Made by a program: the position numbers and the translations under genes. The notes beneath the pieces were generated by a model that made no database searches, was not told where the DNA came from, and saw only the letters and a program-made list of their open reading frames with translations. Positions 2,573-62,143 of a stretch of 64,000 nt of DNA are shown one piece after another; positions within the stretch are counted from its first letter, which is position 1; every line of letters begins with the position of its first letter. This DNA comes from Escherichia phage naam. The DNA is taken from sequence record MN850630.1. One strand, 5' to 3'.

Positions 2573-3163
2573 ATGTTTTTATGGGAAAGGCCTAGATACC
2601 TTCCAGATATTAGATTGGAGCTGCTGGCAGATATTGTTACGTTTAAAAGTCCGTTTACAGGTAAAACGCAAAAAGTAACCTATGCCACACCTAACTGGAA
2701 AGGCACTTTGACGGTTTCCAATATCAGCGAGTCACAGTTGCTAGAGCTTAAGAGCTTTGTTGATCAGGTGTATAAAGATGGAAACATCTTTCTTATTAAA
2801 ACTTACGGTCACTCAGTTACAGCTAATGAGCCAATCGCCCTTGGGCCTACTGGTAACGACGATTTTTTGAAGACGGTTGGGTGGGAGCCAAACAGAGACA
2901 TAGCCAGAGCTGGGGATAAAATATCTGTCAATGATGAATTGAAAGTGGTAACAGCTCCAGTGCGTAGCGATGGTGTTGGGTCTGCTGTTATAAGCATATC
3001 TCCAAGACTTAGAAAACCTATTGCCGCAGGGGACACTATGAAGATAATAACTCAATCCCCGAAGGGTAGGTTTCATATCAGAGATATTTATAAAATTAAG
3101 CAAAAAGTCGATGCTATGCAAAAAGGGGATAATATAGTTATCAACTTCTTTGAGGATTTCTAA
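2573..3163 (+). CDS. Minor tail / tail-tip protein (position as lambda gpM/gpL), function tentative
   Basis: ORF with RBS ggagg; first of three small genes immediately upstream of the J-like gene; TLTVSN motif. Confidence 0.5.
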   Translation: MFLWERPRYLPDIRLELLADIVTFKSPFTGKTQKVTYATPNWKGTLTVSNISESQLLELKSFVDQVYKDGNIFLIKTYGHSVTANEPIALGPTGNDDFLKTVGWEPNRDIARAGDKISVNDELKVVTAPVRSDGVGSAVISISPRLRKPIAAGDTMKIITQSPKGRFHIRDIYKIKQKVDAMQKGDNIVINFFEDF

Positions 3164-3164
3164 G

Positions 3165-3716
3165 ATGATCAGAGCGCCATTAGATAATTTATTTCTTGAA
3201 AAGCTGGAGCTTGATGGTGTTGAGATCTTAATTGCTGCAAAGCTGGAGCTACCGACAGGAACTGTCAGGGTGTGCTCAGGCACTGGTGTTGTAGTAATTG
3301 AGGGGCAACATTTTATAGGGATAGGGGGATCAGCAACATTAACTGCTGTGTCTGAGAAAGATGCCACCAACTTCGGATCTGTGGTAGCAACATTGAACGG
3401 GTTTGATCCTAAGTATGTGGGTGATCTGCTGAAGACGGAGTATTCTGGTTGTCGTGCCACGTTGTACATTACCGCTATGGAGAATGGTCTACCTGTCACA
3501 ACTAATGGCTTGTTTGACGGCCTTATAACAGATATGGCTATTCAGACAGGTGAGAATAGTGCTTTGTCCATATCCATCTCTTCCATCTTCAACAGTTGGT
3601 TAAGAGGTTTTCCTTATCGGTACACGGAGGAAAGCCACAGCTCAAGAAACGATAATGACAGATTTTTTAAATATGTGGATCAGGTGGCGAGCCGCCCGAT
3701 CATTTGGGAGGTTTAA
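3165..3716 (+). CDS. Minor tail protein (tentative)
   Basis: ORF track starts at TTG 3150; the ATG at 3165 has an RBS (gagga) 8 nt upstream and TAATG-type coupling to the next gene. Confidence 0.5.
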   Translation: MIRAPLDNLFLEKLELDGVEILIAAKLELPTGTVRVCSGTGVVVIEGQHFIGIGGSATLTAVSEKDATNFGSVVATLNGFDPKYVGDLLKTEYSGCRATLYITAMENGLPVTTNGLFDGLITDMAIQTGENSALSISISSIFNSWLRGFPYRYTEESHSSRNDNDRFFKYVDQVASRPIIWEV

Positions 3717-4141
3717 TGAGCACACACCCTCGTTTAGTGGATTGGCAAGAAAGATTGTGGAAAGTGTTTGACGAAGAGGCCACCATACCTTTTGAATGGG
3801 GATTCCACGATTGTTGCACCTTTGCGGCTAAGTGTGTTGATGCCCAATACGGAACAGATTTTCTTTCCAACTTCGAAGGAACGTATAAAACAGAGTTGGA
3901 AAGCAAAAGATGGTGCATGCTTCGTTTCAAAACTACACACCTGCCTACTATTTTTGATCTCTTTATGACTCGACTGGATACTCCTAAACAGGTTCAGCGT
4001 GGCGATATTGTTATTTTCGAAGGTCTGAACGGGCTCACCGCTGGTGTGTTCTGGAACAACCAGATTTGCGCGAAAGGTGATAAAGGGGTCTTTATGTTCG
4101 ACATGAAAGATTCTATCGTTGTTGATGTCTGGAGGTATTAA
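3716..4141 (+). CDS. Tail-tip assembly protein with NlpC/P60-like Cys motif (gpK-like, tentative)
   Basis: ATG at 3716 overlaps the upstream stop (TAATG); motif GFHDCCTF...RGDIVIF; sits directly upstream of the J-like gene. Confidence 0.5.
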   Translation: MSTHPRLVDWQERLWKVFDEEATIPFEWGFHDCCTFAAKCVDAQYGTDFLSNFEGTYKTELESKRWCMLRFKTTHLPTIFDLFMTRLDTPKQVQRGDIVIFEGLNGLTAGVFWNNQICAKGDKGVFMFDMKDSIVVDVWRY

Positions 4142-7100
4142 TGCCAATTGCAATGATTGATAACATCGTTGCTTCTGCAAGATCTTCAAGTTATGACTGG
4201 AACGCATCCAAGGCAGCTCTGGCTGACAGCCTGAACACTGTGACCACCAGAACTTTGGATAAGATTTTTGAGGGCAACAAATCTTACAGAAGTCAGCAAG
4301 ATAGACAAAAGCTTCTCAGATCTTCTGCTGCACCTTGCTCTGTAGTGTATGGAAAGACACGCACATCTGGATTGCTTGCGTTTTTGGAGCAGGATAGCGA
4401 CAGAACCCTCCATTGTGCTATTGTTCTTGCCAATCACCCTCTGGAAGGTATAGAAGATATACTTATCGACGGTAATCCTATTTCCTCGTATGGAGATCTG
4501 GTATCGTGGGAGCTACATAACGACAGAAAAACATCTGATCCTTTCATGGGTACACACTGCCCATCATGGTCACCTGACATGATAGGTAGAGGGATCAGTT
4601 GGCTACGTGCCAGCTTCAGGTTTGACCCTAACAAGTTTCCTTTTGGGTTGCCAAACGTTACACTCGTCAAGATTGGTAAAAAATGCTATGATCCTCGTAT
4701 CAGTAAAGAGGTGTACACCAATAACGCTGCCTTGGTGATCCTAGACTATTTAAGAACGTACCTTAAATGTCCTGACGAAACCATCAACTGGGAGTCCTTC
4801 AAGGAGGCTGCCAACATATGCGACGAGGCGGTAAAAAACGCAGACGGAACCAGTGAGCGCCGTTACACCATTAACGGTGAGTTTGACATGGATGAGGCCC
4901 CAGCAAGTATTATGGCAGAAATGCTGAAAGCTTGCGGTGCAGATCTTAGTTATGTTGCTGGTAAGTATGGTTTGCTGGTTGGTGCATACTATGGCCCAGC
5001 AACAATGACACTTAGTGAGGACTGTGTCTGTGGTGAGGTTAAGATCTATCCGGAAGCCTCATTTGACAAAAGATCCAACACAATAACTGGCAGATTCACT
5101 AGCCCGACCAAAGGGTATTCTGAAACAGATTTTCCATCAGTGTTTGTCCCAGAGTGGATAGAGAAGGATGGAGAAAGAAAGATAATCGATATAGATTATC
5201 GCTTTGTTACCAGTCCTTACCAAGCTCAGCGTGTTTCTGCAATCTTCCTAAGACGTGCTAGAGCTGGCAGGATTATTGAAGTCACCTGCAATATGCGAGG
5301 TTTTAAATTTAAGCCTGGCCGTTATGTTACAATGGACCTCCCAAGTATTGGTATTGTGGGCCAAGAAATGAGGGTTCTTGAATGGGAGTTCACCAAAAAG
5401 GGCGGTGTCAAGGTAAAACTTCGTCAAGATGCTAAAGAGTGGAATGATGCCACAGGGCAACTTCCGGATTCCGGCGATGTAGATATTCCGATATCCCCGT
5501 CCGGTGTAGCTCAGCCGCAAAACTTCAGATACTCCGTTCTCCAAGCTGGGGAAGTAACTCACGGTGTTTTGGCCTGGGACAACGTTGGGACTTACGCTCA
5601 AAATATTGTGCAGGTAAGAAAGAACGGAGAGATTGTTTGGACAGCACAGACAGTTGAGCAGTTTGTCCGTGTTGAAGGTCTGACTAAAGGTTCCTACACA
5701 GCCACTGTTGTTGCAACATCTTATAAAGGTGGTGTATCTCCAGAAGCGTATTGTGAGTTTAACATTCAGGCACCTGAAGCTCCGGTTTCTGTAGAGGTTA
5801 AGCAAGGATACTTTGCTATCACCTTGATTCCGCATAGTAGGGATTTAGCAAGTGTTAGCACCCAGTATGACTTTTGGACATCCGGTATGACAAGGTTGCC
5901 CGACACCAGTGATGCAACCGTTACTTCAAACGCCACCCGTATGGGTGTTGGTTCAACTTGGACATCTGAAGGTCTGCAGAACGATAAGGTTTATTATTGG
6001 TATATTCGAACCACAAACGCTTTTGGTAGTTCTCAGTTTGTAGAATGCGCTGCACGCTGCTACACCTCTATTGAGGATTTGATGCCTCAGATAGATGCTG
6101 AATTCAAAAAGACAGAAACTTATAAAGAGTTGATGAGCACTTTGGATTCCTCTATTGAAGAGGTTGAAAATCGTGTCACAGAACTTAACAGGTACATGGA
6201 TGGTAGGGTAGATGAGGCATTCCAGCAACTTGGAGACAGAATAGGTGCGGTAGTTACAGAGACAACTCAGAAGTTTGAGGATGTCAATGGCAATATCACA
6301 GCGCTGGATAGGAAACTTGTTGCTGCACAGAACAAGTTCACCAACGATCTGAACACTGAAAGTGGAAGATTGGCATCCCTGATTGAGACAACCAATAAAG
6401 CAACTACTGATCTTCTGAACAAAAAGACAGAGGCTTTAGATGAGAAATTGGTTGCCGCCAAAGGTGAGCTGGTAGAGCAGATAGAGGGAGTTGAGAGCGG
6501 GTATTTAGCCGGAGATAAAACTCTGGATGGTAAGATCAATACTCAGAGAACAGAACTTGACGCAAGCATCTTGAGCACTAACCAGGCCACTGTGGATCTT
6601 TTGAACAGGACATCTGAAACTCTGGATCAAAAGATTAGTCAGACAAACGCGACGGTATCTAAAAACTATACCACCCTTGACGGCAAGATAACTACCGCAA
6701 AAACTGACCTCAACACCTTGATTGCCAATACCAACAAGGCCACCACTGACTTGTTGAATCAGAAAACATCTGCACTGTCAGAGCAGATAACTTCTGCACG
6801 TGGGGAGATTTCTACCAACAAGCAAGCGATTGATGCTTTGGATGGAAAACTGACCTCCACAAAAACAGCGCTGGATGCTACAATTTCCGATACCAATAAA
6901 GCCACTGTGGACCTTATCAACGGCACAGCGTCAGCTATTCGTCAAGAACTTGCTGTTGCTAAGCAGGAGATCATTGATGATGTTGGGGATGTGTCTGAGA
7001 TCAGGGCTGCAGTAGCTACAACATCTAAGGCTGTAACCGACTTAGAGGGTAAAGTAAATGCTCAATGGGGCACAAAAATACAGGTAGACTCCGCAGGGAA

Positions 7101-7980
7101 TAAATATGTTGCAGGTATTCAGTTGGGGATGGAAGGGTCTGGAGGCCAAGTTCAATCCTACTTCATGGTTAGCGCAAACAATTTTGCGGTATACAACCCT
7201 GGCAATGGAACAGCAACCCTTGCTTTCGCAATCAAGAACAACCAAGCGTTCTTGAAAGACGCTTTTATAGAGAATGGCACGATCTCCTCTGCCAAGATTG
7301 CACAAGAAATTTCGTCAAACAACTACGATGGCAACGGGTACCATAAATACGGTTGGTATATTAACAAGAACGGGCACGCCCAATTTATGGATGTGTGGGT
7401 GAAAGGCAACATCAACGCCAGTTCTGGTAACTTCACAGGGGCAGTTAACGCCACTAGTGGTACCTTCCGTGGGGATGTTTATGCCAATAATGGTAGCTTT
7501 AGAGGCACCATAGATGCAACCGGAGGTACCTTCCGTGGTCGTGTAGAAGCTTCTGTTATCCGCGCTAACCAGTTCGAAGGTGCAATTGTTGCACACAGGA
7601 CTTACGGAGATTGTGCTCCAGTATATAACTCCCGGCAAAGGGTTTGCCGTTGGAGGTGGAGATACGTAGATAACGTTTCAGGTCAGGGTAAGAACGTAAC
7701 ATTCTTCTTTAAACTGAATGGTACTCTTGCCAGCTCCCAGCTTAACGTTTGGATAGCCAGACATCAAATCCTTGCAGGTAAGAAGTACGGAAACGACAAC
7801 AACGGCATGTGTGCGGTAGGGATAACGGGTCTTGGTGAACAAACCATAGATATTGTTGTTGAAATCTACACACCATGGTCAACGTCTTCTGTAACAGGGG
7901 TCGCAATATCCTGTCCTACTGTTGTGGTAAGCCGTTCTAACTCTAGTTTCCAAGGACCTTGGAACGAGTCTCACGACTAA
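4141..7980 (+). CDS. Tip attachment / central tail fibre protein, lambda J-like, with internal coiled-coil repeat insertion
   Basis: Segments APEAPVSVEVKQGYFAITLIPHS, YDFWTS and YYWYIRTTNAFGSSQFVE match my recollection of the lambda J FN3-like region; about 300 aa of TNKATTDLLN-type repeats in the middle. Confidence 0.8.
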   Translation: MPIAMIDNIVASARSSSYDWNASKAALADSLNTVTTRTLDKIFEGNKSYRSQQDRQKLLRSSAAPCSVVYGKTRTSGLLAFLEQDSDRTLHCAIVLANHPLEGIEDILIDGNPISSYGDLVSWELHNDRKTSDPFMGTHCPSWSPDMIGRGISWLRASFRFDPNKFPFGLPNVTLVKIGKKCYDPRISKEVYTNNAALVILDYLRTYLKCPDETINWESFKEAANICDEAVKNADGTSERRYTINGEFDMDEAPASIMAEMLKACGADLSYVAGKYGLLVGAYYGPATMTLSEDCVCGEVKIYPEASFDKRSNTITGRFTSPTKGYSETDFPSVFVPEWIEKDGERKIIDIDYRFVTSPYQAQRVSAIFLRRARAGRIIEVTCNMRGFKFKPGRYVTMDLPSIGIVGQEMRVLEWEFTKKGGVKVKLRQDAKEWNDATGQLPDSGDVDIPISPSGVAQPQNFRYSVLQAGEVTHGVLAWDNVGTYAQNIVQVRKNGEIVWTAQTVEQFVRVEGLTKGSYTATVVATSYKGGVSPEAYCEFNIQAPEAPVSVEVKQGYFAITLIPHSRDLASVSTQYDFWTSGMTRLPDTSDATVTSNATRMGVGSTWTSEGLQNDKVYYWYIRTTNAFGSSQFVECAARCYTSIEDLMPQIDAEFKKTETYKELMSTLDSSIEEVENRVTELNRYMDGRVDEAFQQLGDRIGAVVTETTQKFEDVNGNITALDRKLVAAQNKFTNDLNTESGRLASLIETTNKATTDLLNKKTEALDEKLVAAKGELVEQIEGVESGYLAGDKTLDGKINTQRTELDASILSTNQATVDLLNRTSETLDQKISQTNATVSKNYTTLDGKITTAKTDLNTLIANTNKATTDLLNQKTSALSEQITSARGEISTNKQAIDALDGKLTSTKTALDATISDTNKATVDLINGTASAIRQELAVAKQEIIDDVGDVSEIRAAVATTSKAVTDLEGKVNAQWGTKIQVDSAGNKYVAGIQLGMEGSGGQVQSYFMVSANNFAVYNPGNGTATLAFAIKNNQAFLKDAFIENGTISSAKIAQEISSNNYDGNGYHKYGWYINKNGHAQFMDVWVKGNINASSGNFTGAVNATSGTFRGDVYANNGSFRGTIDATGGTFRGRVEASVIRANQFEGAIVAHRTYGDCAPVYNSRQRVCRWRWRYVDNVSGQGKNVTFFFKLNGTLASSQLNVWIARHQILAGKKYGNDNNGMCAVGITGLGEQTIDIVVEIYTPWSTSSVTGVAISCPTVVVSRSNSSFQGPWNESHD

Positions 7981-7988
7981 CCTTTAAA

Positions 7989-8015
7989 GCCCCGCTTCGG
8001 CGGGGTTTATTTTTA
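7989..8015 (+). terminator. Rho-independent terminator, UUCG-tetraloop hairpin plus U-tract
   Basis: gccccgc-ttcg-gcgggg followed by tttatttttat; same hairpin family as 2481 and 34148. Confidence 0.8.
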
Positions 8016-8023
8016 TGCTCAGA

Positions 8024-8052
8024 TTGACTATTGTTACAAAATTTGGTAAAAT
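8024..8052 (+). promoter_or_regulatory. Sigma70-like promoter (TTGACT-17-TAAAAT)
   Basis: -35 at 8024-8029, -10 at 8047-8052; shares aaaatttggtaaaata with the promoter at 2513. Confidence 0.55.
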
Positions 8053-8085
8053 ACCTTGTAGAGATTTTCATACCGGAGGAGTGAC

Positions 8086-9576
8086 GTGGCTAAGTATGGA
8101 TTGACAGAGGCTGGTTTCGTTATACCAACCCTAAATGACCTAATCGTTGAAACTAAGCAAAGCCTGATCCGTGCTTTTGGCGAAAACTTCAACGTACAGA
8201 GTAACTCCGTTGCAGATAAGCTGACCACTATCTTCAACGAGCGAGAGTATCAACTTATTCTTATGGCAGCATCTGTATACGCATCACAGACGCTGTATGG
8301 GGCAGAAGGTATTTACCTGGATGAGCTTCTTGGAAGACAGGGTATTTACCGAAGAGGCCGTTCTAAATCATCAGGTACCTGCCAGTTGACAATCAACACA
8401 ACTGTGCCGTACAATATGATTTATGATTCCAAAACTTATACGCTGGACAGTGGCAACTTTGTTCTTAGCAACGATGTGCAAGTAGCAGGGAATCTTATTG
8501 CTCACAGAATAAATGCTCCAGACCTAAGGATTGGTAAATACAACTTTCAAATTACCAACCAGACAGATGGAAGTATCAAAACAAAAAGTCTGGTTTTAAC
8601 AGATAAGTCTCTGGACTCTTCTGATTTGCCAAGCTTTTACGGAGAGATTAAGCAATTCATTGTCGATAATACAACCCTGTTGAACGACGATTTGATTCAG
8701 GTCGATATGTTGACAGGAACGTTGTGGATAGGGTACAATTCGAATCTTGATCAAGTTGGACTTAATAGTAGAGTAGATTTCAGAGTATCCCCGATTGTAG
8801 GGGAAAGAACTATCACCCTGGATGTTATCGCTAACGAGGCTGGTGAGCTGTCAAGAGAGGCAGAAACCGTGACAACAATGTCACCTACTCCCAGTGGATT
8901 TATCAAGCTTACCAACCGAGAAAGATTCAATGAGGGCAGGGATGTTGAGAAAGACTCAGAGTATCGCTTAAGAGCTTCCAGCACAAAACAGTTAACATCT
9001 AAGGCTACCCGTCCTGCAATCCTTAGCGCTGTAAGCGAGGTGAAAGGTGTTGAGAAAGTGAGGGTGTTCTCCAACAACACCGATAAAACTGATGCTAAAG
9101 GTATACCTCCTTACAAGTTCCAAGTGGTTGTGTTTGGTGGTGCAACGGAGGACATTTGCCAAGCACTTTACCAAACTATAGCCTGTACTAACAGGACTTA
9201 TGGTAATATTTTCTACGATGTCACTACATCTGATGGTCAAACTGAAAGAATTTATTACTCCAAGGCAAATACCTACCGCCTAGATGTAAGAATTACCTAC
9301 TCCGGTGCCGCACTTTCCACAACCGAAAAAGATGCCATTGTAGAGGCTCTTTTGCAGGTTGTTAACGGACTGGATGTTGCAGATACGTTGTATAATATCC
9401 AATTGGTCGGCGCTGCATCTGCTGCTGTATCAATAGGCAGATTTAATAGACTGGTAATTCAAGTTAAACCAGTAGGAGCTTCTGATGAAGCTTACACTAC
9501 AAACGATATTGTTGCGAACATGACCGAGGTGTTTGACCTCGACGAAAGTAATATAACTTTCCAACAAACTATTTAA
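8086..9576 (+). CDS. Hypothetical virion structural protein (tail/baseplate region)
   Basis: GTG start with RBS ggagg; 496 aa; located in the tail module. Confidence 0.55.
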   Translation: MAKYGLTEAGFVIPTLNDLIVETKQSLIRAFGENFNVQSNSVADKLTTIFNEREYQLILMAASVYASQTLYGAEGIYLDELLGRQGIYRRGRSKSSGTCQLTINTTVPYNMIYDSKTYTLDSGNFVLSNDVQVAGNLIAHRINAPDLRIGKYNFQITNQTDGSIKTKSLVLTDKSLDSSDLPSFYGEIKQFIVDNTTLLNDDLIQVDMLTGTLWIGYNSNLDQVGLNSRVDFRVSPIVGERTITLDVIANEAGELSREAETVTTMSPTPSGFIKLTNRERFNEGRDVEKDSEYRLRASSTKQLTSKATRPAILSAVSEVKGVEKVRVFSNNTDKTDAKGIPPYKFQVVVFGGATEDICQALYQTIACTNRTYGNIFYDVTTSDGQTERIYYSKANTYRLDVRITYSGAALSTTEKDAIVEALLQVVNGLDVADTLYNIQLVGAASAAVSIGRFNRLVIQVKPVGASDEAYTTNDIVANMTEVFDLDESNITFQQTI

Positions 9577-9587
9577 GGCGGCGAGAT

Positions 9588-10274
9588 ATGGCAGAGATTA
9601 AGTCGGATGTTAACCACATCCACACTCTGCCAGATTTTGTTCAGGGAGGTCTTGACTACCTGCCTGGAGATTTTCTGGCTGAGAAGGTTAATTTGGTCAC
9701 ATTCTTAACCGTGTACCTTAAAAGGTTGGAGGATGTTGATAAGATGCTGGTAGGTTTGGCTGAAGGAAGATTGCTTAACAATGCCAGCGGAAGATACCTT
9801 GACGAAGTTGGTAATCAACTTGGTATTCTTAGGAATGGACTTTCAGATGCTGATTTTCGTGCCACACTAATTATTCAGCAGGCCGCAGCATCAAGGGGCG
9901 GGACTCGCGAAGATGTCATCTCCACCTTGCGACAATTGTTCGGAAGAAACAATTTCGATACGTGGAAAGGAGACAACTTCAGGTTTGACATAAATATTAG
10001 AAAAACTTGCTTTGACATATTGCAGTCTATCGATCAGATCTTAGATATGCTACCATTGCCTTGTCATTTGCGTCTTACAGAATCGCAAGGGCAAGCTTTT
10101 GGTTTTGAAGGGGACCATACAGCTCTTGGCTTCGGATCAGTGTGGGAAGAAAACCAATTCGGAGTTGGTGGGCTGGCTACTTTGCTGTATGTTCCTGACG
10201 TAAGACCTGATTGGGACACCACAACCATTTATTGTGAAAGTATTACAGTAAACGCAACTAGACAGGAGGGTTAA
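9588..10274 (+). CDS. Hypothetical structural protein
   Basis: ATG with RBS; 228 aa; translationally coupled to the next gene (ATG overlaps stop). Confidence 0.55.
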   Translation: MAEIKSDVNHIHTLPDFVQGGLDYLPGDFLAEKVNLVTFLTVYLKRLEDVDKMLVGLAEGRLLNNASGRYLDEVGNQLGILRNGLSDADFRATLIIQQAAASRGGTREDVISTLRQLFGRNNFDTWKGDNFRFDINIRKTCFDILQSIDQILDMLPLPCHLRLTESQGQAFGFEGDHTALGFGSVWEENQFGVGGLATLLYVPDVRPDWDTTTIYCESITVNATRQEG

Positions 10275-12346
10275 TGGCAACAGCTATTTTTAAACCTTAC
10301 CGTGATTACTCTACAATGGCTGCACGGTTTCATTACCGCACAGTTCAGGATACTGCCGTTCCTGGTAGGGATTATAATCATGTTGAGGGTGATGTAACTA
10401 TCCCAATTGGGGCAACCAGTATTGAGATCCCAGTGGAAATTGTTGACAAATTACCCAACAGGTTGCCAAGAAGCTTCTTTATGGAGTTTTCATCAAAATC
10501 TCAAGGGGTGATGATTGGAACACAAAGGGCGAAATGTACAATAGTTTCAGATGAGAATCTTGACAGGATATCTTGGGATACTGTCGAGGAGAGAATGTTT
10601 CACCCAAGATATTGGGTTACAACTACCCAGCAGACTGAAAGCACCTGTATTGTTGCAGATAATAACTGTTGTATTAACCGTTTAGTGTCAAGAACATATG
10701 GAGGTATGGCTGGGTGCATTTGGGAAACAGTTGACAAGTATGACCATTTCGGTATTGGGTTTGATGATCATTATGAGATGAGAAATACCAAGCTTTGGTT
10801 CAGAATGTCAATAACCAACGCCAGCAACTTCTCCACTCCTGAAAAGATGATTATGACTGTAGACCTTGTTGATGGCACAATCATCTATGTTCCTTTAGCT
10901 CAATATGCTGTCAGCATCTCAGAGGATAAGAATGTTGCAGAAATTCATATTGATTTCGAGGACTGCGTCGGGATGGACCAGAACAACAATATGATGGGTG
11001 TTGATCCTCGACAGGTGAGAAGGATTTTAATACCGCTTATGCCTAAAGATTGGGTAAGCAATAGCACAAACCCAAGAACGGAAAATGTAGAGTGTGAGTT
11101 GCGCCTAGATCTGCTTCAGCCAGACACAGGCTGGAAAATGATGCAACTTAACAATATTCAGGTGAAAGAACACGACGTTGGGATCTGCACAGCATATGAC
11201 GATATGTGGAACGTGTCTCCTTTAAGGGTGTTGAACAATATCAAGCGTCTGGGCTATACCGGAACCATAAACCATTATGTTGGTATGAGTCATTATTATG
11301 ACTACACATGGTCAGGAACTCAATGGTCTATAAACAGAACAGGAGCGCTAAACGCTGCAGCTTATAAATGGCATGATGATTTTATGTACAATGCCAAACG
11401 ACATAACTTCGACGTTATGCAATCTGTAAGTTTTGAGCTTTTCAGCGATGCCTGCCCGTTGGAATGGACCCAAAGAGACTGGAACGATAACTACGCTAAA
11501 ACAGGGTATACACCTTGTAGCTACCTCCTGTCTCCAACCATTGAAGAGGGTATGAATTTCCTTACTGCAGTATTTAAGAATTTTGCATCAGCCGCTATGA
11601 GAAACAACCTGCCAGTGATTATGCAGGTTGGTGAACCGTGGTGGTGGTACAATACCGATACTCGTAGACCTTGTATTTATGATTACCCTACAAAGCAGGC
11701 GTTTTATGATGAGACAGGTGAGTATGCATTAGATATTGGGACTATTGACGATCCTAAAACTGGCGGTGTTTACGACAAGTATGTAGCATTTTGTCGTGGT
11801 AAGCTTGGCGCTCGTATTGCGGCTATTTCAAAGGCAGTAAAGGCACACGCTGCATCAGCTCAGATGACAGCTTTGCTGTTTTTCCCAACCATTATGGAAA
11901 CCGAGCTTACGCAAAAGCTGAACCTTGCTGACCAATATAAAAAGGAAGCAGGTGCTCTTGATTTCTTCTGCACTGAGTGCTACGATTGGGTGATGCAGGG
12001 AGGTATTGAAAAGGCAAAAGAGTCTGTAAACATACCTATCGTTAAGTTAGGTTGGCAACCGTCTGAAATACAATACCTTGCAGGGTTCGTTCCTAGTAAA
12101 GAGCTTGCTCCGGTATATGGCTACGACCCAACTAGGAATTACCAAGAATTTTTATGGAGATGTATTTGCGGAAACATGGCAACTATAGAGTATAGATACC
12201 CTGAGGTAAAACAGTATGTATGGGCATATCCGCAAGTAATGTCTGACAGCATCACTGTTACCGCTAGAGATTCTACCGTGCTTCATATGGGGCAGGTTGC
12301 TCTGAAAGGGTATGTAGAAGATGTTGTCCCGCCAGACTTCTCATAA
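10274..12346 (+). CDS. Hypothetical large tail-associated protein (possible proximal fibre or tailspike component)
   Basis: 690 aa ORF with RBS aggagg; directly upstream of the side-fibre/Tfa cassette. Confidence 0.55.
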   Translation: MATAIFKPYRDYSTMAARFHYRTVQDTAVPGRDYNHVEGDVTIPIGATSIEIPVEIVDKLPNRLPRSFFMEFSSKSQGVMIGTQRAKCTIVSDENLDRISWDTVEERMFHPRYWVTTTQQTESTCIVADNNCCINRLVSRTYGGMAGCIWETVDKYDHFGIGFDDHYEMRNTKLWFRMSITNASNFSTPEKMIMTVDLVDGTIIYVPLAQYAVSISEDKNVAEIHIDFEDCVGMDQNNNMMGVDPRQVRRILIPLMPKDWVSNSTNPRTENVECELRLDLLQPDTGWKMMQLNNIQVKEHDVGICTAYDDMWNVSPLRVLNNIKRLGYTGTINHYVGMSHYYDYTWSGTQWSINRTGALNAAAYKWHDDFMYNAKRHNFDVMQSVSFELFSDACPLEWTQRDWNDNYAKTGYTPCSYLLSPTIEEGMNFLTAVFKNFASAAMRNNLPVIMQVGEPWWWYNTDTRRPCIYDYPTKQAFYDETGEYALDIGTIDDPKTGGVYDKYVAFCRGKLGARIAAISKAVKAHAASAQMTALLFFPTIMETELTQKLNLADQYKKEAGALDFFCTECYDWVMQGGIEKAKESVNIPIVKLGWQPSEIQYLAGFVPSKELAPVYGYDPTRNYQEFLWRCICGNMATIEYRYPEVKQYVWAYPQVMSDSITVTARDSTVLHMGQVALKGYVEDVVPPDFS

Positions 12347-23996: not shown

Positions 23997-24377
23997 TTAT
24001 GACACTTTGACATAGCGCTCTGACAAAGCTGGGAAGCCAAAAGTAGTGCCTATACTACCATAGGCTATCCACCATTGGAGTTCATCGTGACACCATTTTC
24101 CGATCAGGAAGGTGCTGGGATAGCGGGTCAGTATTTTGGCATAAGCTTTAGGATCTGCATCTTCTGGGATAATGATGCTTGGAATATCTTTGTTATGACC
24201 ACAGCAGCAGTTTAGCGTTTTCAAACCTGCTGCCCACAAACTCATGATAGGCTTAGCCATACACTTATCAAGGCACACACGTTTTTTGCCGTCACGAAGA
24301 TTTTTAGGCACATCAACGATAACATTTGGATGCTTGGCACCTTTCACTTTCCAATTATAGGATTTACACTTGCACAT
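23997..24377 (-). CDS. Hypothetical Cys-rich protein
   Basis: 126 aa with CKCK, CLDKC, NCCCGHN and WCHDE clusters; putative metal binding. Confidence 0.5.
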   Translation of the reverse strand: MCKCKSYNWKVKGAKHPNVIVDVPKNLRDGKKRVCLDKCMAKPIMSLWAAGLKTLNCCCGHNKDIPSIIIPEDADPKAYAKILTRYPSTFLIGKWCHDELQWWIAYGSIGTTFGFPALSERYVKVS

Positions 24378-24427
24378 TTAATCAGTCTCCGTCTAGAAAG
24401 CCGCACTATACGTTTTTGAGGTATACT

Positions 24428-24598
24428 TTACTTAAAGTCTTTATCACCTGCCACGATTGCATGAATCCACTCATTGTGATGCTCAATAGCGGTGAGATGT
24501 AACATGATGTAGTGATCGTCATTGCCAAACATGATATGATAGGCTTTGGCAGCATTTTGATATAACTTCCACATCAGGTAATGATATCTTCGCCTCAT
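24428..24598 (-). CDS. Hypothetical small protein (56 aa)
   Basis: Not in the ORF track (under 60 aa); ATG with RBS ggag inside the end of the upstream gene; fills an otherwise empty gap. Confidence 0.3.
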   Translation of the reverse strand: MRRRYHYLMWKLYQNAAKAYHIMFGNDDHYIMLHLTAIEHHNEWIHAIVAGDKDFK

Positions 24599-24603
24599 GG
24601 CTC

Positions 24604-25074
24604 TTACTCCGGTTCAGGATCTGGGTAATCTTCAATAATAAAGGGCCATCCGTTCCGCTTAGCCTCAGACTTATACTCAATCTCCTTCATTGCAAACTCT
24701 AACTGATTCTTAGCCGGAATACATGCCGGAGAATCATCAATCCAGATATCTGGGTAGATATCAAACTGCGCCAGGTAGGCTGCCTTCTGAACACCACCTG
24801 TGTAGAACACACCAACATCGAGCTCCTTGCGCCAATACTCAATGTCTACATTGTCTTGAGTAATGAATCGGAAAGTCACAAGGTAGACTGTCCACCCCTC
24901 CTTCTTCAGATCCCTGATCAGGCTGGAGAAGATGAAAGGGCTCGCATTAAACGTTCCATCAAAGTCGATGGCAATGATGTGCGTGCCGTGGCGAGTCTCA
25001 TATGGATTGCTCGTGGTAAGATTGCTGTAATTAAAAGGGACTTCTTCCCCGCAGTAGCTGTAGTCCATATTCAC
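24604..25074 (-). CDS. HAD-superfamily phosphatase-like protein (possible nucleotidase)
   Basis: HAD motif I IAIDFDGTF near the N-terminus and a later WIDDSP motif. Confidence 0.6.
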   Translation of the reverse strand: MNMDYSYCGEEVPFNYSNLTTSNPYETRHGTHIIAIDFDGTFNASPFIFSSLIRDLKKEGWTVYLVTFRFITQDNVDIEYWRKELDVGVFYTGGVQKAAYLAQFDIYPDIWIDDSPACIPAKNQLEFAMKEIEYKSEAKRNGWPFIIEDYPDPEPE

Positions 25075-25346
25075 ACCTTCTCGTTGATAAATTTACGGGC
25101 GGTTTGGTGAGTTGTTTCTGCTGTCTTCAGAATGATATTAATTTTATCGTCAAGATCATTCATCTCGGCAGTTAATTCAGGAATCTCTCCGGCATGCATG
25201 GTGAAATCATACATAGACATGCCCAAGATCTCATTGATGCGGCGGTTGCATTCTGCAGCACGCTGGTTCATTTTCCAAGCTAACACCAAAGCCTCCTGCG
25301 TAGCCTCTAGTGCAAAATCTAATACGTCGGCCTCTTCTTTCGTCAT
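25071..25346 (-). CDS. Hypothetical protein
   Basis: 91 aa ORF, start overlaps the downstream gene (ATGA coupling). Confidence 0.5.
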   Translation of the reverse strand: MTKEEADVLDFALEATQEALVLAWKMNQRAAECNRRINEILGMSMYDFTMHAGEIPELTAEMNDLDDKINIILKTAETTHQTARKFINEKV

Positions 25347-25403
25347 CTCAGTCTCTCCTGTTGTATTGTTGGTAGGTGTATGAACACCTTATAACTCACC
25401 TTT

Positions 25404-25970
25404 TTATTCAAACTGCAACAGTAAGTCCACCACCGCGCTAGGTCTGTCAACAAATTCCCCAGGTCCACATGCCCACAGAGGGTATCCGTCTACATACCGC
25501 CAAATCCAACCTGCAGTGTGGAGTTCGAGCAGGGCAGTACCGTCCTTGCTGTCAACCACTCTTTCCCACAGTGTTGGGCAGCGAAGCTTGAGAATCGGAT
25601 CACCTCCCTTATACCCGTCCATGTAGATACCCATTGCAAAGTTCAGCATCATCTTTTTGTGCACTGATCTCTTACTGAGGGTGCTCATCACTTCCTCTTT
25701 GTGAATGTTTGTAAGCTTCTCTTTGGCTACCCGCAGATCGTTGCAACCATTGTTCAGCAGATCTTCCAAACACTTAATCCGAAGGTCGTGAATGTCTTTG
25801 TCGTGTACCGTTGGCACAGGGTCGTAGCGGTATAGCACTGTTGATACAAGGTTGCTCGGGTGCGGGTCTGACAGCAACCCATAGCCCCAATACTCTTCTG
25901 TATCTGAAAGGACAAGACACCCAATGTCTCTGTCAAGCTTTCCTGTGTTGTAAGCCACATTGACCGCCAT
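25404..25970 (-). CDS. Hypothetical protein
   Basis: 188 aa ORF in the minus-strand cassette. Confidence 0.55.
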   Translation of the reverse strand: MAVNVAYNTGKLDRDIGCLVLSDTEEYWGYGLLSDPHPSNLVSTVLYRYDPVPTVHDKDIHDLRIKCLEDLLNNGCNDLRVAKEKLTNIHKEEVMSTLSKRSVHKKMMLNFAMGIYMDGYKGGDPILKLRCPTLWERVVDSKDGTALLELHTAGWIWRYVDGYPLWACGPGEFVDRPSAVVDLLLQFE

Positions 25971-25972
25971 GA

Positions 25973-26218
25973 CTATAGCTCCACTAGCAAAGTGCTTTCA
26001 AAGTGCCGTTCATGCAGACCGTTGTAAGTGACCACCTCCACAACGCCATCACGGACATATGGAGCCATCATAGTGGTATAATCCCCAAACGGGTTGGTAT
26101 TGTCACTAACCACAACCACCTTCTGCCCTTCCTTGGCAGAGTGCCAAATAGATCTGCACTTCATCAGGTGTTCGAGGGCTCCAGGTAAAATTTTGTTACG
26201 TTCTTTACGGGTCTTCAT
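25973..26218 (-). CDS. Hypothetical protein
   Basis: 81 aa ORF, tightly packed. Confidence 0.5.
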   Translation of the reverse strand: MKTRKERNKILPGALEHLMKCRSIWHSAKEGQKVVVVSDNTNPFGDYTTMMAPYVRDGVVEVVTYNGLHERHFESTLLVEL

Positions 26219-26664
26219 AACAGGTATAGCTCCTTATGAAAGTGATCTTTTAATTTCTCACTGAGAAACTTCTTGATACCTTCCTCTAAAGTGTTTTCGA
26301 TGTAGTCCAGCTTAACTGCTTCGATGGACATATCATAGATCGCCAGCTCTAAGCTGTCAAGTCCCATCATAGCATGAACCATAAGATTTTCATCTTCAGA
26401 TACATTCAGGGGACTTCCTATAACATCTGGAGGCAGAATAGTTTCCCAATTATTCTGGGTGGTAGTTCTCCCTCCCTCTACTTTACGGCGCAGTTCGAAT
26501 GTGTTCTTAGTGTAGAACACTTCATAAGAAACGATACGACTGTCACTCTCGTAATAAACGAAGTTCAGGTAGGAGCCTAGCCGCAGTCGGCAAACTTCTA
26601 CCCCAAACCATTGTTTCTTATAAGAATTCAGGCTAATGCTGTCGCATTCACGTTTGCTCAACAC
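26215..26664 (-). CDS. Hypothetical protein
   Basis: 149 aa ORF, ATGA-type overlap with the downstream gene. Confidence 0.55.
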   Translation of the reverse strand: MLSKRECDSISLNSYKKQWFGVEVCRLRLGSYLNFVYYESDSRIVSYEVFYTKNTFELRRKVEGGRTTTQNNWETILPPDVIGSPLNVSEDENLMVHAMMGLDSLELAIYDMSIEAVKLDYIENTLEEGIKKFLSEKLKDHFHKELYLL

Positions 26665-26680
26665 GGCTCTCTCCTTTTTG

Positions 26681-26917
26681 TTAATCTTCGTAAATCAGGA
26701 TTTCTGCTTTAGGTTTTCGTGCTTTCATGTCCAGCTCTATCCAGTGCACCATAGCTGTTTCAAGAAAAACAGCCTGGATGCATCCGTCCTCAGCAGCGTG
26801 CCCTAGCAGCATGACAAGATCTTCTCCTTCGTCATCTGCATCACGAACATACAGAATCTCTCCAGGTTCAAAATCTTTCACAATCTGATTGTTGGATAAT
26901 TTACGAATTTTTGCCAT
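26681..26917 (-). CDS. Hypothetical protein
   Basis: 78 aa ORF. Confidence 0.5.
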   Translation of the reverse strand: MAKIRKLSNNQIVKDFEPGEILYVRDADDEGEDLVMLLGHAAEDGCIQAVFLETAMVHWIELDMKARKPKAEILIYED

Positions 26918-26918
26918 A

Positions 26919-27182
26919 TCAGAAACCCTCTAAAAAGCTCTTGTAGAAAACAATCTCAGTATCAACACCAGTCACAATCTTGTCGTTCCTGATTTCATCG
27001 GTAAGATAGGTATCAAAACGCAGAACCTGGGTCGTGTTGTCACACATCCACTCAGCTGTGACCATTGCGAAAATCTTAGCATCTTCATTATCTGGTGTGA
27101 ATGTTACCACCTCACCGCATTTAAACTTTTCAATAGGTTGCGTATTAGCTTTCGGTTCTGCAATAGTAATTTTCGTGGTCAT
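26919..27182 (-). CDS. Hypothetical protein
   Basis: 87 aa ORF. Confidence 0.5.
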   Translation of the reverse strand: MTTKITIAEPKANTQPIEKFKCGEVVTFTPDNEDAKIFAMVTAEWMCDNTTQVLRFDTYLTDEIRNDKIVTGVDTEIVFYKSFLEGF

Positions 27183-27448
27183 TACTCTTCCTCCATAGTT
27201 TCACCAAATACTTCGATACAGGCATCGAGCTCGGTTGCTTTCAGCTCCCCAACAAAATCTTTCAGTTCTTTCTCGTCCAGATCGTAAGCCCACACACAAG
27301 AAGAACATGCAGATTTCACAATCAGCAGCGTAGATACACGACCTGACTCTGTGATCATGCTCACAATGGTTCCTACAGGGAACGTGTTGATAGCTTTTTT
27401 AACTGGGCGTTCAGCTTTGATTACTACCTCTGTTGCCATAAATAACAT
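27182..27448 (-). CDS. Hypothetical protein
   Basis: 88 aa ORF, start overlaps the downstream stop. Confidence 0.5.
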   Translation of the reverse strand: MLFMATEVVIKAERPVKKAINTFPVGTIVSMITESGRVSTLLIVKSACSSCVWAYDLDEKELKDFVGELKATELDACIEVFGETMEEE

Positions 27449-27454
27449 CCTCTC

Positions 27455-28936
27455 TCACTTGGCGTACTCGATTAATTCTACAGTTTTCCCAAAGCTCGGG
27501 ATATAATTTTTATTATACCCCTCGGTGAGAACCCATAAAGTATCGTACTTTTTCCACTTGTTGTCAACAGCCTTTTGTTCAAAGTTATGCTCAAAGTATA
27601 GGTCGGTCAGGACGATGACATCTTTTGCATTCGGTATGTTGGCATCCAGATACTCAAACACACAAGCAGCTGTTGTGCCCCATGTTGAGTGGACCTCATA
27701 GTTGATCATCTCGTCTATGTTGCCGCGAGTGTATACTTTAACCTCTCCAACCTCAGTTGACCAACAGAACATTGTAACCTTAAACTCTTTATACAGATTG
27801 CACAATCCGGTGATTTCATTGAACATTTTCTTTAAAGTTCTTTGAGAGATCGAGCCAGAAACGTCTAAAGCCACCACAATATCTATGGTGTTTTCCGGAT
27901 TACGACCAGGAACAATAACGTGCTGGTTCTTGTTTATAGCCCCAACTTTTCGCATTGTGCTGGTCAAAGAACCAGATCGGCGACCAGGTTTTCTGTAGGT
28001 CAGTTCAGCCTTTCGTTTAGACAACATGCGTTGCTTAATAATGTCTATATAGTTGATTACAGGCTTGCCTCTGTTCTTGACGAACTCACGCACCGCCTCA
28101 GGGCAACGACCTCCGGAAGCTTGCATTGCTGCCTCCAGCATGTCACCAGAGTCCTGCATGGCCTGATCTTTATCAGATTGGCTGATTACAGGTTGTGGCT
28201 GATCATACCCCATAGCCTTTCCAAGATCATCACTGGTGCCACCGTTCCCACTCATGTGATCATCGGTTTGTCGCTTATCCCCTTGAGAGTTCTCACCTTT
28301 ACCGCTCTTACTTTTACCGTTATTCTGATCTCTTTGCTTATCAAGAACTGCATAGACGTTCTCAGCAATCCATCCATGAAACTTCATGTCGCAGTAGCAG
28401 CTGGCTAAGAAGCCAAAAGGCTTACCTTTTACGAACGTAGTGCTTTTCCCCTTCGGGAAGAAAACACAAGGGGGCTTACTAAAGTCAACCACAAGACCTG
28501 TGTTGATAACGTGATCACAAGCAATATTGAACAGTTCTGGCTCAAAACTTTTACCACGGACCAGGTGATCACAGATAATATGCCCCACCTCATGTGACAG
28601 AAGAAAGGCCACCTCCTTCACAGATTTGGGGGAATAGAAAACCTCAGCCATCCCAAACTGTTCGTCAGTTAGAGAAGCCTTAAGAATAGCCCTGCGTTCA
28701 TCAGCCAATCCCATAATGAACTCAGGACTGTAATAGATGCGTTTATGGTCGGTTGCCATGGTAGAGCACCATGTGTGGTTTTCTACGAACTGCAACCCTG
28801 ACAGTAGCGTGCCATAAAACGGCAGCTTTTCAAGGAGATACATACGTGCAGCCTGCAACATTCTCAGGGCATCATCTTTCTGTGAGGCAATGATTTCTGA
28901 ACTTCTGCTATCCATTAAAACTCCAGAAGGGGCCAT
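27455..28936 (-). CDS. vWA-domain protein with N-terminal HExxH metallopeptidase-like domain (partner type of MoxR-class AAA+ ATPases)
   Basis: HEVGHIICDH zinc-peptidase-like motif in the N-terminal third; MIDAS-like VVALDVSGSIS in the C-terminal third. Confidence 0.7.
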   Translation of the reverse strand: MAPSGVLMDSRSSEIIASQKDDALRMLQAARMYLLEKLPFYGTLLSGLQFVENHTWCSTMATDHKRIYYSPEFIMGLADERRAILKASLTDEQFGMAEVFYSPKSVKEVAFLLSHEVGHIICDHLVRGKSFEPELFNIACDHVINTGLVVDFSKPPCVFFPKGKSTTFVKGKPFGFLASCYCDMKFHGWIAENVYAVLDKQRDQNNGKSKSGKGENSQGDKRQTDDHMSGNGGTSDDLGKAMGYDQPQPVISQSDKDQAMQDSGDMLEAAMQASGGRCPEAVREFVKNRGKPVINYIDIIKQRMLSKRKAELTYRKPGRRSGSLTSTMRKVGAINKNQHVIVPGRNPENTIDIVVALDVSGSISQRTLKKMFNEITGLCNLYKEFKVTMFCWSTEVGEVKVYTRGNIDEMINYEVHSTWGTTAACVFEYLDANIPNAKDVIVLTDLYFEHNFEQKAVDNKWKKYDTLWVLTEGYNKNYIPSFGKTVELIEYAK

Positions 28937-28948
28937 TGGCCCCTGTCA

Positions 28949-29992
28949 TTATTTAACGTGTTTGAAAATACCTGCCAACTCGGTCATTGTCATGCGGGTG
29001 GTCTTCATAAGATCTGTCATAGCTTTCTCCATAATTGGAGATACTACCATAAAATTTCCTTTAGTGAAACCTTTATTCCAGTCGGTCACCAACAGTGGTT
29101 TAAGTCCAGCCCCGAGACGTTCACCTGTTAAAGCACAGCATTTGCGAATATACGAACTCTTAAATTGGCTGAACGACAGATCAACTTTCATACCTGCATC
29201 GTAGAACGTTTGACAATAGAAAGTATAAGCCTTAGCAATCTCAACATCATCAGGCAGTGCAGGAACCTCTTCTGCAATCTCCTCTTCGACCTTCTGAGGC
29301 TCTTTTTCCTCTTCAGGAGTCTGTTCTTCAATTTCTTCTGTCACAGTCTCGTTCACGATGTCTGAAATATGTTTGTTGGCTGCACGATCAGCCATGAAAT
29401 TTTTAAAATCCTGCATTGGTGACATATCTTCTTCCTCTTCGTCAAATAGTGCTAGTTTATCTTCTTCTGTCCCGTATTGCAAGATGAAATCTTCAAAAGT
29501 ATAATCACCTTTCAATTTCTCCATACGCTCTTCGCTCAGGTGGAGCATCATCTGCTGGACAATTTTTCGATCGGTTTTGTCTTTAATCAGGATTGCAGTC
29601 TTTTTATCTACCAGACAGTCTTTCAGAGCGTTGCACCTCAACCCTACCACACAACAATTGTCAATTGCGTAAGGACCTTCATCATCTATACGCTCTAAAG
29701 ATGGGTAGAAAGGATTTCCCAGTCCGTTTTCATCTGTGTGCATGTCGAAAGGTATAAGAGTGTAGTCGCATACCCCTTCTCCTAAAAGTTTTTTACCAAA
29801 TAGGAGGTATTCTTCCCACGACAGGTCGAACTCTATATCTCGTTTCCGTGCATTATTCTGTTTGCGTCTATATTTTTTGAGCAGGCGCTCTAACTCTTCT
29901 GGTGTATAATATTTTTCAAGATTCATGAGTTGTCTCTCGTGCTCTGTAAGTGAAGAAATCGTATCAATTGTCTCAACAGATGTCAACATCAA
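28949..29992 (-). CDS. Hypothetical protein with very acidic central linker and possible degenerate HNH-like motif
   Basis: 347 aa; TTG/ATG start at the divergent promoter hub; LERIDDEGPYAIDNCCVVGLRCN; long D/E-rich stretch. Confidence 0.55.
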   Translation of the reverse strand: MMLTSVETIDTISSLTEHERQLMNLEKYYTPEELERLLKKYRRKQNNARKRDIEFDLSWEEYLLFGKKLLGEGVCDYTLIPFDMHTDENGLGNPFYPSLERIDDEGPYAIDNCCVVGLRCNALKDCLVDKKTAILIKDKTDRKIVQQMMLHLSEERMEKLKGDYTFEDFILQYGTEEDKLALFDEEEEDMSPMQDFKNFMADRAANKHISDIVNETVTEEIEEQTPEEEKEPQKVEEEIAEEVPALPDDVEIAKAYTFYCQTFYDAGMKVDLSFSQFKSSYIRKCCALTGERLGAGLKPLLVTDWNKGFTKGNFMVVSPIMEKAMTDLMKTTRMTMTELAGIFKHVK

Positions 29993-29999
29993 AAACGTG

Positions 30000-30028
30000 T
30001 TGACTTTACTCTAAATCTCCGATATAGT
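30000..30028 (+). promoter_or_regulatory. Sigma70-like promoter (TTGACT-17-TATAGT) in the divergent hub
   Basis: -35 at 30000-30005, -10 at 30023-30028; drives the 30069 gene. Confidence 0.6.
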
Positions 30029-61944: not shown

Positions 61945-62143
61945 TGCCACGTTAATTAACCCCTTTAGTGAAGATTTGAAGCCAGCCGCCTGGCGGGATG
62001 GATTCAATAACGAAAGCTTTATTTTCAGGCCTGATCTTAAGGAATTTTATAACAATGGATCGAACAACGACAGAGATAATTTTTCTTGTAATGTGCGTGG
62101 TGATAATACTCCTGGGGGCCATTGCAAACCACGTCACTGCTAA
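61922..62143 (+). CDS. Hypothetical small protein (frame uncertain)
   Basis: ATG at 61922 after gagagg; an alternative overlapping frame (61998-62180) encodes a TM peptide, so the assignment is ambiguous. Confidence 0.3.
   Translation: MWTSRLNNATLINPFSEDLKPAAWRDGFNNESFIFRPDLKEFYNNGSNNDRDNFSCNVRGDNTPGGHCKPRHC

Follow-up and report, generated by a model that had tools for sequence, protein, structure and literature searches.

What is a stretch of about 300 residues doing in a J-like tail fibre protein of an Escherichia phage when its lambda counterpart lacks it, and how is it built? The question is raised by 64,000 nt of the genome of Escherichia phage naam (MN850630.1; this whole stretch is hereafter called the window), in which the gene at nt 4141–7980 encodes a lambda J-like protein with a long internal insertion. 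Our analysis indicates that the insertion is an enlarged, repeat-built version of the alpha-helical shaft (AHS) of lambda J, and that it probably serves as a modular, trimeric coiled-coil spacer of swappable and variable length that sets the reach of the fibre; the trimeric state and the function are the parts of this reading that we infer.

4141..7980, plus strand: gene of the J-like fibre protein, an open reading frame (ORF) of 3840 nt encoding 1279 amino acids (aa) plus a stop codon, as given by the ORF list and its translation.

The ATG of this gene overlaps the stop codon of the gene upstream. At the DNA level the ORF is 99.9% identical to that of Escherichia phage slur16 and 97.5% identical to that of phage V5 (rV5), and the 116 phage records that match it with an identity of at least 90% are all ~130–140 kb Vequintavirus (rV5-like) myophages. 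The encoded protein, which matches phrog_31 'central tail fiber J' in PHROGs (E 7e-164), is the ortholog of rV5 gp37 (1279 aa). rV5 gp37 is among the largest virion proteins, matches COG4733, Phage-tail_3 (PF13550) and SMC-like (coiled-coil) sequences, and was detected by whole-phage virion proteomics (2013; PMC3606486). The labels that depositors have given to the protein include 'central tail fiber J', 'tip attachment protein J', 'omp-alpha' and 'lateral tail fiber protein with fibronectin type III domain', and the BASEL annotators regard it as a lateral fibre. Minus-strand ORFs of 87–91 aa were rejected as real genes, as they sit within this strongly conserved plus-strand gene.

The protein is divided as follows:

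4141..5616, plus strand: N-terminal hub-like region, aa 1–492, homologous to siphovirus J-like baseplate-hub proteins.
5617..6096, plus strand: two J-type immunoglobulin (Ig)/fibronectin type III (FNIII) domains, aa 493–545 (partial, weak) and aa 547–652, from Pfam and the lambda alignment.
6070..7059, plus strand: alpha-helical shaft, aa 644–973 (330 residues), expanded counterpart of the lambda J AHS (809–861).
7009..7431, plus strand: Phage_Tail_Tip domain (DUF1983, PF09327), aa 957–1097, Pfam E 1e-38, counterpart of the lambda central straight fibre.
7432..7977, plus strand: C-terminal region, aa 1098–1279, presumed distal or receptor-binding end, conserved in the genus.

Comparison with lambda J (8iyk) by phmmer aligned residues 497–678 of the query to J 666–844 and residues 955–1116 to J 842–991. 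Two consecutive J-type Ig/FNIII domains were found in the part that aligns to lambda J 666–808: Ig_J_second at aa 547–652 (E 1e-30), and Ig_J at aa 493–545 with 24.7 bits, under its 29-bit cutoff. A first-pass annotation of the window had proposed both the homology to lambda J and an insertion of ~300 aa at nt 6100–7060. The homology holds for the FNIII/Ig region and for the tail-tip domain in Pfam, phmmer and profile comparisons, and the insertion was located at aa 654–974, between Ig_J_second and Phage_Tail_Tip, where Pfam returns only weak helical-protein noise. Given the limits of the two flanking alignments, ~276 residues are without a lambda counterpart. In lambda J, the AHS (residues 809–861) is a three-helix bundle between FNIII-2 and the beta-prism central straight fibre (PMC11101478). 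The ends of the stretch examined here align to both ends of the lambda AHS (J 809–844 and 842–862), and the extra ~276 residues are therefore located inside the shaft, which lies between FNIII-2 and the beta-prism as in lambda and is approximately six-fold longer.

On the N-terminal side, the protein is, from aa 48 on, 48% identical to the J-like tail tip protein of Nonagvirus FritzHoffmann. Positions 247–553 of the family profile match residues 519–835 of the T5 pb3 hub (E 4e-15), and the profile also matches the F2-pyocin fibre. Phage-tail_3 (PF13550) was present in six of 18 aligned relatives, and the window protein alone gave no Pfam match in aa 1–500. At the other end, no homology to the lambda receptor-binding domain (RBD) was detectable, the lambda J alignment ending at about query aa 1116 (J 991), and no Pfam domain was found in aa 1098–1279.

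Is this shaft a coiled coil? The sequence is long and helix-compatible, with 1 Pro in 330 residues, and residues 653–956 include no Pro, Trp, Cys or His at all and have a high content of T, L, A, E, D and K. The hydrophobic residues of the shaft recur with a period of 3.62 residues, within the 3.5–3.67 range of coiled coils; the power of this signal is 200, compared with a mean of 33 and a maximum of 66 in shuffled sequences, none of 300 shuffles reaching it. Four Vequintavirus variants of the shaft have periods of 3.62–3.64 over 225–432 residues, with powers of 156–243 against shuffle maxima of 66–117 (0 of 300 in each case). A single period between 3.5 and 3.67 that stays coherent over hundreds of residues fits a continuous, weakly supercoiled and hendecad-rich coiled coil. 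When the 44-aa units described below are written as four rows of 11 residues, hydrophobic residues occupy columns 5, 8, 9 and partly 1, which is consistent with an a/d/e/h hendecad core. AlphaFold2 (AF2), run on aa 547–1140 as a single-sequence monomer and used for secondary structure only (mean predicted local distance difference test score, pLDDT, 48; helices 50–76), predicted with low confidence a helix from aa 630 to aa 976 with a single break. The coiled-coil character that the first-pass annotation had assumed is thus borne out by the period and, at low confidence, by the predicted helix. The break is found in the following segment:

6493..6513, plus strand: Gly-containing segment in unit 1, aa 785–791, the sole predicted helix break.

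This segment is part of the extra residues that make unit 1 62 aa long instead of 44, and it may be a hinge or a stutter. The shaft also gave weak sequence or profile matches to P22 gp26 and reovirus sigma-1, both of which are trimeric coiled coils. By analogy with lambda, the packing would be that of a parallel, three-stranded trimer; as the AF2 model is a monomer, this geometry rests on the homology to lambda J.

Most of the shaft is made of repeat units, which are arranged, with the last copy of their motif, as follows:

6259..6390, plus strand: degenerate repeat unit 0, aa 707–750, 44 aa.
6391..6576, plus strand: repeat unit 1, aa 751–812, 62 aa, starting TNKATTDLLN.
6577..6729, plus strand: repeat unit 2, aa 813–863, 51 aa, starting TNQATVDLLN.
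6730..6891, plus strand: repeat unit 3, aa 864–917, 54 aa, starting TNKATTDLLN.
6892..7020, plus strand: repeat unit 4, aa 918–960, 43 aa, starting TNKATVDLIN.
7021..7053, plus strand: terminal motif copy TSKAVTDLEGK, aa 961–971, at the junction of the shaft and the tail-tip domain.

When the protein was compared with itself, the best off-diagonal windows of 30 residues had BLOSUM62 scores of 70–102, at lags of 51, 54, 62, 105, 113 and 167. Chance or low-complexity repeats were rejected as an explanation, as these scores exceed those of all 200 composition-preserving shuffles (maximum 50). About 255 of the ~276 extra residues are accounted for by five units of 43–62 aa. The clear units start with the motif TN[KQ]AT[TV]DL[LI]N at aa 751, 813, 864 and 918, and the identity among these four is 34–50% in global alignments and 36–50% over MAFFT-aligned columns. 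Unit 0 is 20–43% identical to the other units of three alleles and 65% identical to the equivalent unit in phages LL12 and BP9. Residues 644–706 form a non-repetitive helix. Of the short repeats that had been described as filling the ~300 aa, it is the repetition that stands: the units beat the shuffles, are not short, and leave aa 644–706 uncovered.

The terminal motif is the only copy in the siphovirus homolog of FritzHoffmann, where it reads VSKSVVDLEGK. It aligns approximately to lambda J 848–858, within the segment 841–861 that has been reported to refold from helix to beta-strands upon receptor binding. The unit starts at nt 6391, 6577, 6730 and 6892 are, as a side observation, copies of this terminal shaft motif (7021–7053) aligned to the refolding lambda segment. 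One may speculate that the units, as copies of that segment, allow the shaft to shorten on binding.

Does the number of units vary among related phages? Gene length was surveyed in 60 records, chosen to spread over the 116 that match:

3840 nt (1279 aa): 28 of 60 records.
3600 nt (1199 aa): 21 of 60 records.
4146 nt (1381 aa): 7 of 60 records.
3525 nt (1174 aa): 1 of 60 records.
Partial genes: 3 of 60 records.

Repeat number is therefore not invariant, and the four gene lengths (3525, 3600, 3840 and 4146 nt) differ by whole units, as expected of the length-variable spacer suggested in the first-pass annotation. Including the terminal copy, the motif occurs three times in Escherichia coli O157 typing phage 14, four times in LL12, five times in the window and seven times in BP9, in shafts of 225, 250, 330 and 432 residues, respectively. 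A helix rises ~0.15 nm per residue, and at this rise the computed shaft lengths are ~33, 37, 49 and 64 nm. When the window protein was compared with those of LL12 (1199 aa) and BP9 (1381 aa), the flanks were 93–100% identical and the shaft 49–82%, and the differences fell at whole units: BP9 includes two additional 44-aa units directly after the first TNKA, and the units of LL12 are fewer and shorter than those of the window. The C-terminal region is 96–99% identical among the three length classes. Length is constant, but for one cluster of 1280 aa, in the 120 closest protein clusters, which are at least 99% identical. Lineages of the genus do differ from one another, and so does one phage with an identity of 97%. 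The more diverse relatives were reached through clustered representatives and through tblastn and megablast searches of phage genomes. The phages of the BASEL collection span two classes, as MaxBurger, EmilHeitz and RudolfGeigy encode proteins of 1279 aa and CarlMeissner and MaxTheCat proteins of 1199 aa; ECML-10, like BP9, is of the 1381-aa class.

At the DNA level, sliding identity to LL12 is 93–98% through nt 5640, falls to 81% by nt 6090, is 50–64% across nt 6091–6990 and is at least 98% from nt 7141. Such a deep trough of divergence within a nearly identical gene favours the exchange of old, diverged shaft cassettes over gradual drift, and the divergence of the shaft would reflect exchange of old allelic cassettes. 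Within the gene, divergence is highest in the shaft, and the presumed receptor-binding C-terminus is conserved; this is the opposite of the usual pattern in tail fibres.

A change of another kind was found in typing phage 14 (KP869112), which is otherwise ~97% identical to the window. In a pairwise alignment it lacks one segment:

6584..6898, plus strand: 315-nt segment, aa 815–919, missing in E. coli O157 typing phage 14.

The deletion removes 105 codons in register, the equivalent of units 2 and 3, and its junction lies within a shared 11-nt exact match, GCCACTGTGGA, inside the conserved motif.

The DNA of the repeats gives little reason to expect such events often. Tandem Repeats Finder, run over nt 4000–10000, reported no array in the repeat region, where the repeat shows in the protein only, and the sole DNA repeat family there is 30 nt long with 70–77% identity. 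Over their first 25 codons the units have a nucleotide identity of 48–59%, with no exact match between units longer than 12 nt, and near-identical head-to-tail copies of the kind that makes up a recombination-prone tandem repeat were not found. The DNA repeats are old and weakly similar and do not form a classic recombination-prone array. The first-pass annotation had overstated the matter in calling the region visibly self-similar at the DNA level, and its expectation of recombinational change is borne out in part, by the two-unit deletion in typing phage 14 and not by the state of the repeats themselves.

How could such a shaft have arisen and what might it do? In the reading that we prefer, a tandem duplication of the C-terminal part of the shaft, ~44 residues long (four hendecads with an a/d/e/h core), would have provided the extra length; this origin is suggested by the single motif copy in the siphovirus homolog. 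The five resulting units, of 43–62 residues and each starting T[NS]xA[TV][TV]DL, would extend the helix without disturbing it, as unit lengths near whole helical turns would keep the hydrophobic stripe in phase along the entire shaft. If the protein is a trimer, as its homology to lambda J suggests, the shaft would form a nearly straight, parallel, three-stranded coiled coil of ~49 nm, and this rod would keep a fixed spacing between the FNIII/hub end and the conserved beta-prism and C-terminal domain. In this reading the shaft is a swappable cassette, with 3, 4, 5 or 7 motif copies and a length of ~33–64 nm, in a gene that is otherwise nearly identical. The variants would have arisen by in-register gain or loss of units together with exchange of diverged cassettes, and shaft length could tune how far the distal domain extends through layers of surface glycans or in relation to the other fibres of the phage.

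Several observations weigh against this reading or narrow it. The AF2 model is a low-confidence monomer, so that the predicted trimer geometry leans on lambda J, and the predicted break at aa 785–791 together with 16 Gly would allow kinks or a folded-back bundle. In two phages of the 1279-aa class, cryo-electron microscopy (cryo-EM) has resolved only three fibres, all of them others than the J-like protein. All proteins in the 120 closest clusters are 1279 aa long, save one of 1280 aa, and this near-constancy means that length changes are rare and does not point to rapid switching; similarly, the DNA similarity of the units is too low for frequent homologous recombination. The record of typing phage 14 is a partial genome, in which an assembly error is conceivable, though a repeat as short as 11 nt does not usually make an assembly collapse.

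That break, the Gly residues (16 in 330) and a weak Pfam similarity to apolipoprotein- and BAR-type helical bundles could also be read as signs that the helical region folds back on itself or forms an antiparallel or multi-helix bundle, in which the number of units would alter thickness or shape and not reach; helix-rich domains have been noted in some J-like fibres. We consider such a fold improbable. One hydrophobic phase runs over 225–432 residues in every variant, which is expected of a continuous coiled coil and is not needed by hairpins, the proteins weakly matched in the PDB (P22 gp26 and sigma-1) form trimeric coiled coils with parallel strands, and the homologous lambda segment is itself a parallel three-helix bundle. 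It seems even less credible, to the point of being very unlikely, that the TNKATTDL-type units are docking sites for another fibre, a tailspike or an accessory protein in the branched adsorption apparatus of Vequintavirus, their number setting the count of partners and not the length. The Vequintavirinae do encode many fibre proteins with unassigned attachment points, phi92 has one fibre attached to the base of another, and the most conserved part of the units is a short polar motif that would be compatible with a surface. Against this, the motif supplies core positions of the hendecad pattern, and its one copy in the siphovirus homolog lies where shaft and prism meet and is structural.

An explanation that bears on adaptive value only, and leaves the structure unaffected, is that the length variation has no function: the shaft would be the least constrained part of the protein, and its cassettes neutral products of mosaic recombination with occasional slippage. 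Coiled coils tolerate substitutions and insertions or deletions of whole units, the divergence is restricted to the shaft, and length is constant within each close lineage, all of which would agree with neutrality. Every observed insertion or deletion, however, keeps both the helical phase and the reading frame, which argues for selection for an intact rod, and three length classes are each represented by at least 7 records in the 60-record sample. We regard neutrality as a possibility to be kept in mind, on balance doubtful, and retain the modular coiled-coil spacer as the more probable account.

Where in the virion would this spacer be found? A block of four genes (nt 2573–7980) ends with the J-like gene, which is preceded by:

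2573..3163, plus strand: module gene 1, distal-tail-protein-like, 196 aa, phrog_1302 'distal tail protein' (E 2e-50).
3150..3716, plus strand: module gene 2, 'tail protein', 188 aa, phrog_2048 (E 9e-68).
3704..4141, plus strand: module gene 3, DUF6950 protein, 145 aa, Pfam DUF6950 (E 2e-32).

Nonagvirus FritzHoffmann, one of the ~60-kb Queuovirinae siphoviruses, has four homologs of near-equal sizes that immediately follow its tape measure gene. Module gene 1 is 31% identical to bas20_0016, the first gene past the tape measure gene, module gene 2 is 39% identical to bas20_0017, module gene 3 is 44% identical to bas20_0018, and the J-like gene is 48–51% identical to its FritzHoffmann homolog. 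As a phmmer search of the three upstream proteins against the PDB gave nothing credible, their assignment to a tail tip rests on PHROGs and on synteny with the siphovirus.

In the window, the block is located between a fibre gene and a wedge gene. A lambda-type setting, in which the gene follows the tape measure gene and the protein closes the tube tip of a non-contractile tail, was not found, though the syntenic upstream homologs are present. The nearly identical genome of RudolfGeigy has a T4-type baseplate hub and central spike annotated upstream of the region covered by the window, and in a contractile-tail phage with such a hub and spike a lambda-style role at the tip is not to be assumed. 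The names 'tip protein' and 'central fibre' used in the first-pass annotation are accordingly not established for this myovirus, whose relatives have their own T4-type hub and spike. The four-gene block is absent from phi92 nt 62,000–140,000, where only the wedge gene matches; as phi92 is a solved relative with the same wedge gene, this indicates that the block is an add-on and not part of the core myovirus baseplate. For the same reason, the cryo-EM structure of phi92 (2026) was rejected as a guide to the position of the J-like protein.

In lambda, FNIII and the tip are 29.7 nm apart, and ~8 nm of this is shaft. By analogy, a 49-nm shaft followed by ~22 nm of prism and distal domain would give ~70 nm. 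It is tempting, with limited confidence and as a suggestion that could well prove wrong, to propose that the four genes build a complete siphovirus-type tip (a Dit-like ring and L-like, DUF6950 and J-like proteins), acquired and mounted on the baseplate as an accessory fibre, that these are the 'five to six thin 70-nm fibres' of rV5, and that the cassette tunes their reach.

Other features of the window and of the matching records were noted in passing. Nucleotides 62–2473 encode 803 aa from the C-terminal end of a large fibre protein that is cut by the start of the window, has a Peptidase_S74 intramolecular chaperone domain and corresponds to rV5 gp41; in LL12 the counterpart of the rV5 gp41 gene is longer (4440 vs 3813 nt), and one more small gene comes after it. 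Nucleotides 10274–12346 encode a 690-aa protein with Calx-beta and N4 gp65-type 'non-contractile tail sheath' N-terminal and TIM-barrel domains, a deacetylase-type fibre that published work links to ECA/NGR glycan recognition in Vequintavirinae. From ~24000 to 30000, GC and AT skew are negative for ~6 kb and then turn positive, consistent with a minus-strand gene block. Among the records, 18 GenBank entries (MG0656xx) titled 'Campylobacter phage', with Campylobacter jejuni as the stated host, are rV5-like and 92–99% identical to the gene at 4141–7980; the host labels are probably wrong or due to contamination. In the record of phage V18 (NC_041937), the J-like gene and several neighbours are fragmented (its 3001–5744), which suggests sequencing or assembly errors, not biology.

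The shaft represents a natural case of fibre length changing by whole structural units with both ends fixed. This would be useful for engineering fibre reach and for testing whether fibre length matters for penetration of O-antigen or capsule, and the BASEL collection already contains phages of two length classes. The presence of a siphovirus-type tip module inside the fibre cluster of a contractile-tail phage is more notable than the shaft, and placing this module in the virion would help to complete the map of the fibres in rV5-like phages, which are often candidates for therapy. The polymorphism in unit number and the siphovirus tip module in a myovirus are the parts worth following. In the literature searched, no description was found of the unit architecture, of the copy-number classes or of a J-like module in Vequintavirus.

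Of the known systems, lambda gpJ (8iyk, 8xci) is laid out like the protein described here, with FNIII/Ig domains followed by a helical shaft and then by Phage_Tail_Tip, and both ends of its shaft align. It differs in that its shaft has 53 residues, compared with 330 repeat-built residues here, that its LamB-binding RBD has no similar counterpart here, and that the tail of the window phage is contractile and the J-like gene does not follow the tape measure gene. The N-terminal region here is also ~160 aa shorter than that of lambda, without similarity detectable in a pairwise search. The nearest relatives outside Vequintavirus are the J-like tips of Queuovirinae siphoviruses (FritzHoffmann bas20_0019, JenP2, SLUR76), with 45–53% identity from aa 48 and with homologs of the three upstream genes in the same order. 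In contrast to the Vequintavirus protein, their shaft has ~115 residues and one motif copy, the protein, of 925 aa, ends shortly past the tail-tip domain, and the gene lies directly after the tape measure gene.

As a rod, the shaft resembles P22 gp26 and reovirus sigma-1, to which it has weak sequence matches, in being Pro-poor and helix-prone with a regular hydrophobic period. T4 fibritin is likewise a segmented trimeric coiled-coil rod. The homology to the gp26 and sigma-1 rods is limited to coiled-coil character, and the period is 3.62–3.64 here and not 3.5.

The wider J-like family provides the closest setting for the shaft. Among representatives clustered at 50% identity, Ig_J_second and Phage_Tail_Tip are 10 to more than 2400 residues apart, and the Pro-free spacers are of many lengths, up to 576 residues. 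This indicates that a variable, long helical spacer is general in J-like proteins; the window spacer of 304–330 residues is in the middle of the range of the superfamily. Predicted structures include coiled coils of varying length in J-like fibres, and among them is a Vequintavirinae fibre, paired with a T1-like one, whose N-terminus is a central-fibre-like beta-sandwich, whose C-terminus is beta-helical and which includes a large coiled-coil domain (PMC12143355). That fibre (RBPseg TC5) may be the same protein as that of the window. In T1 gp33, the distal 350 residues are predicted to protrude ~37 nm (PMC11945409). T1 gp33 (9l9p) and RBPseg TC5 and TC9 are alike in being J-like with a long helical segment ahead of the tail-tip domain, and RBPseg pairs the Tempevirinae with the Vequintavirinae fibre by their large coiled-coil domains; their helical parts are experimentally unresolved, and those papers are without a unit architecture or copy-number differences within a genus. 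Long shafts of variable length in J-like fibres have already been published, and the shaft of the window protein is a feature of this known kind.

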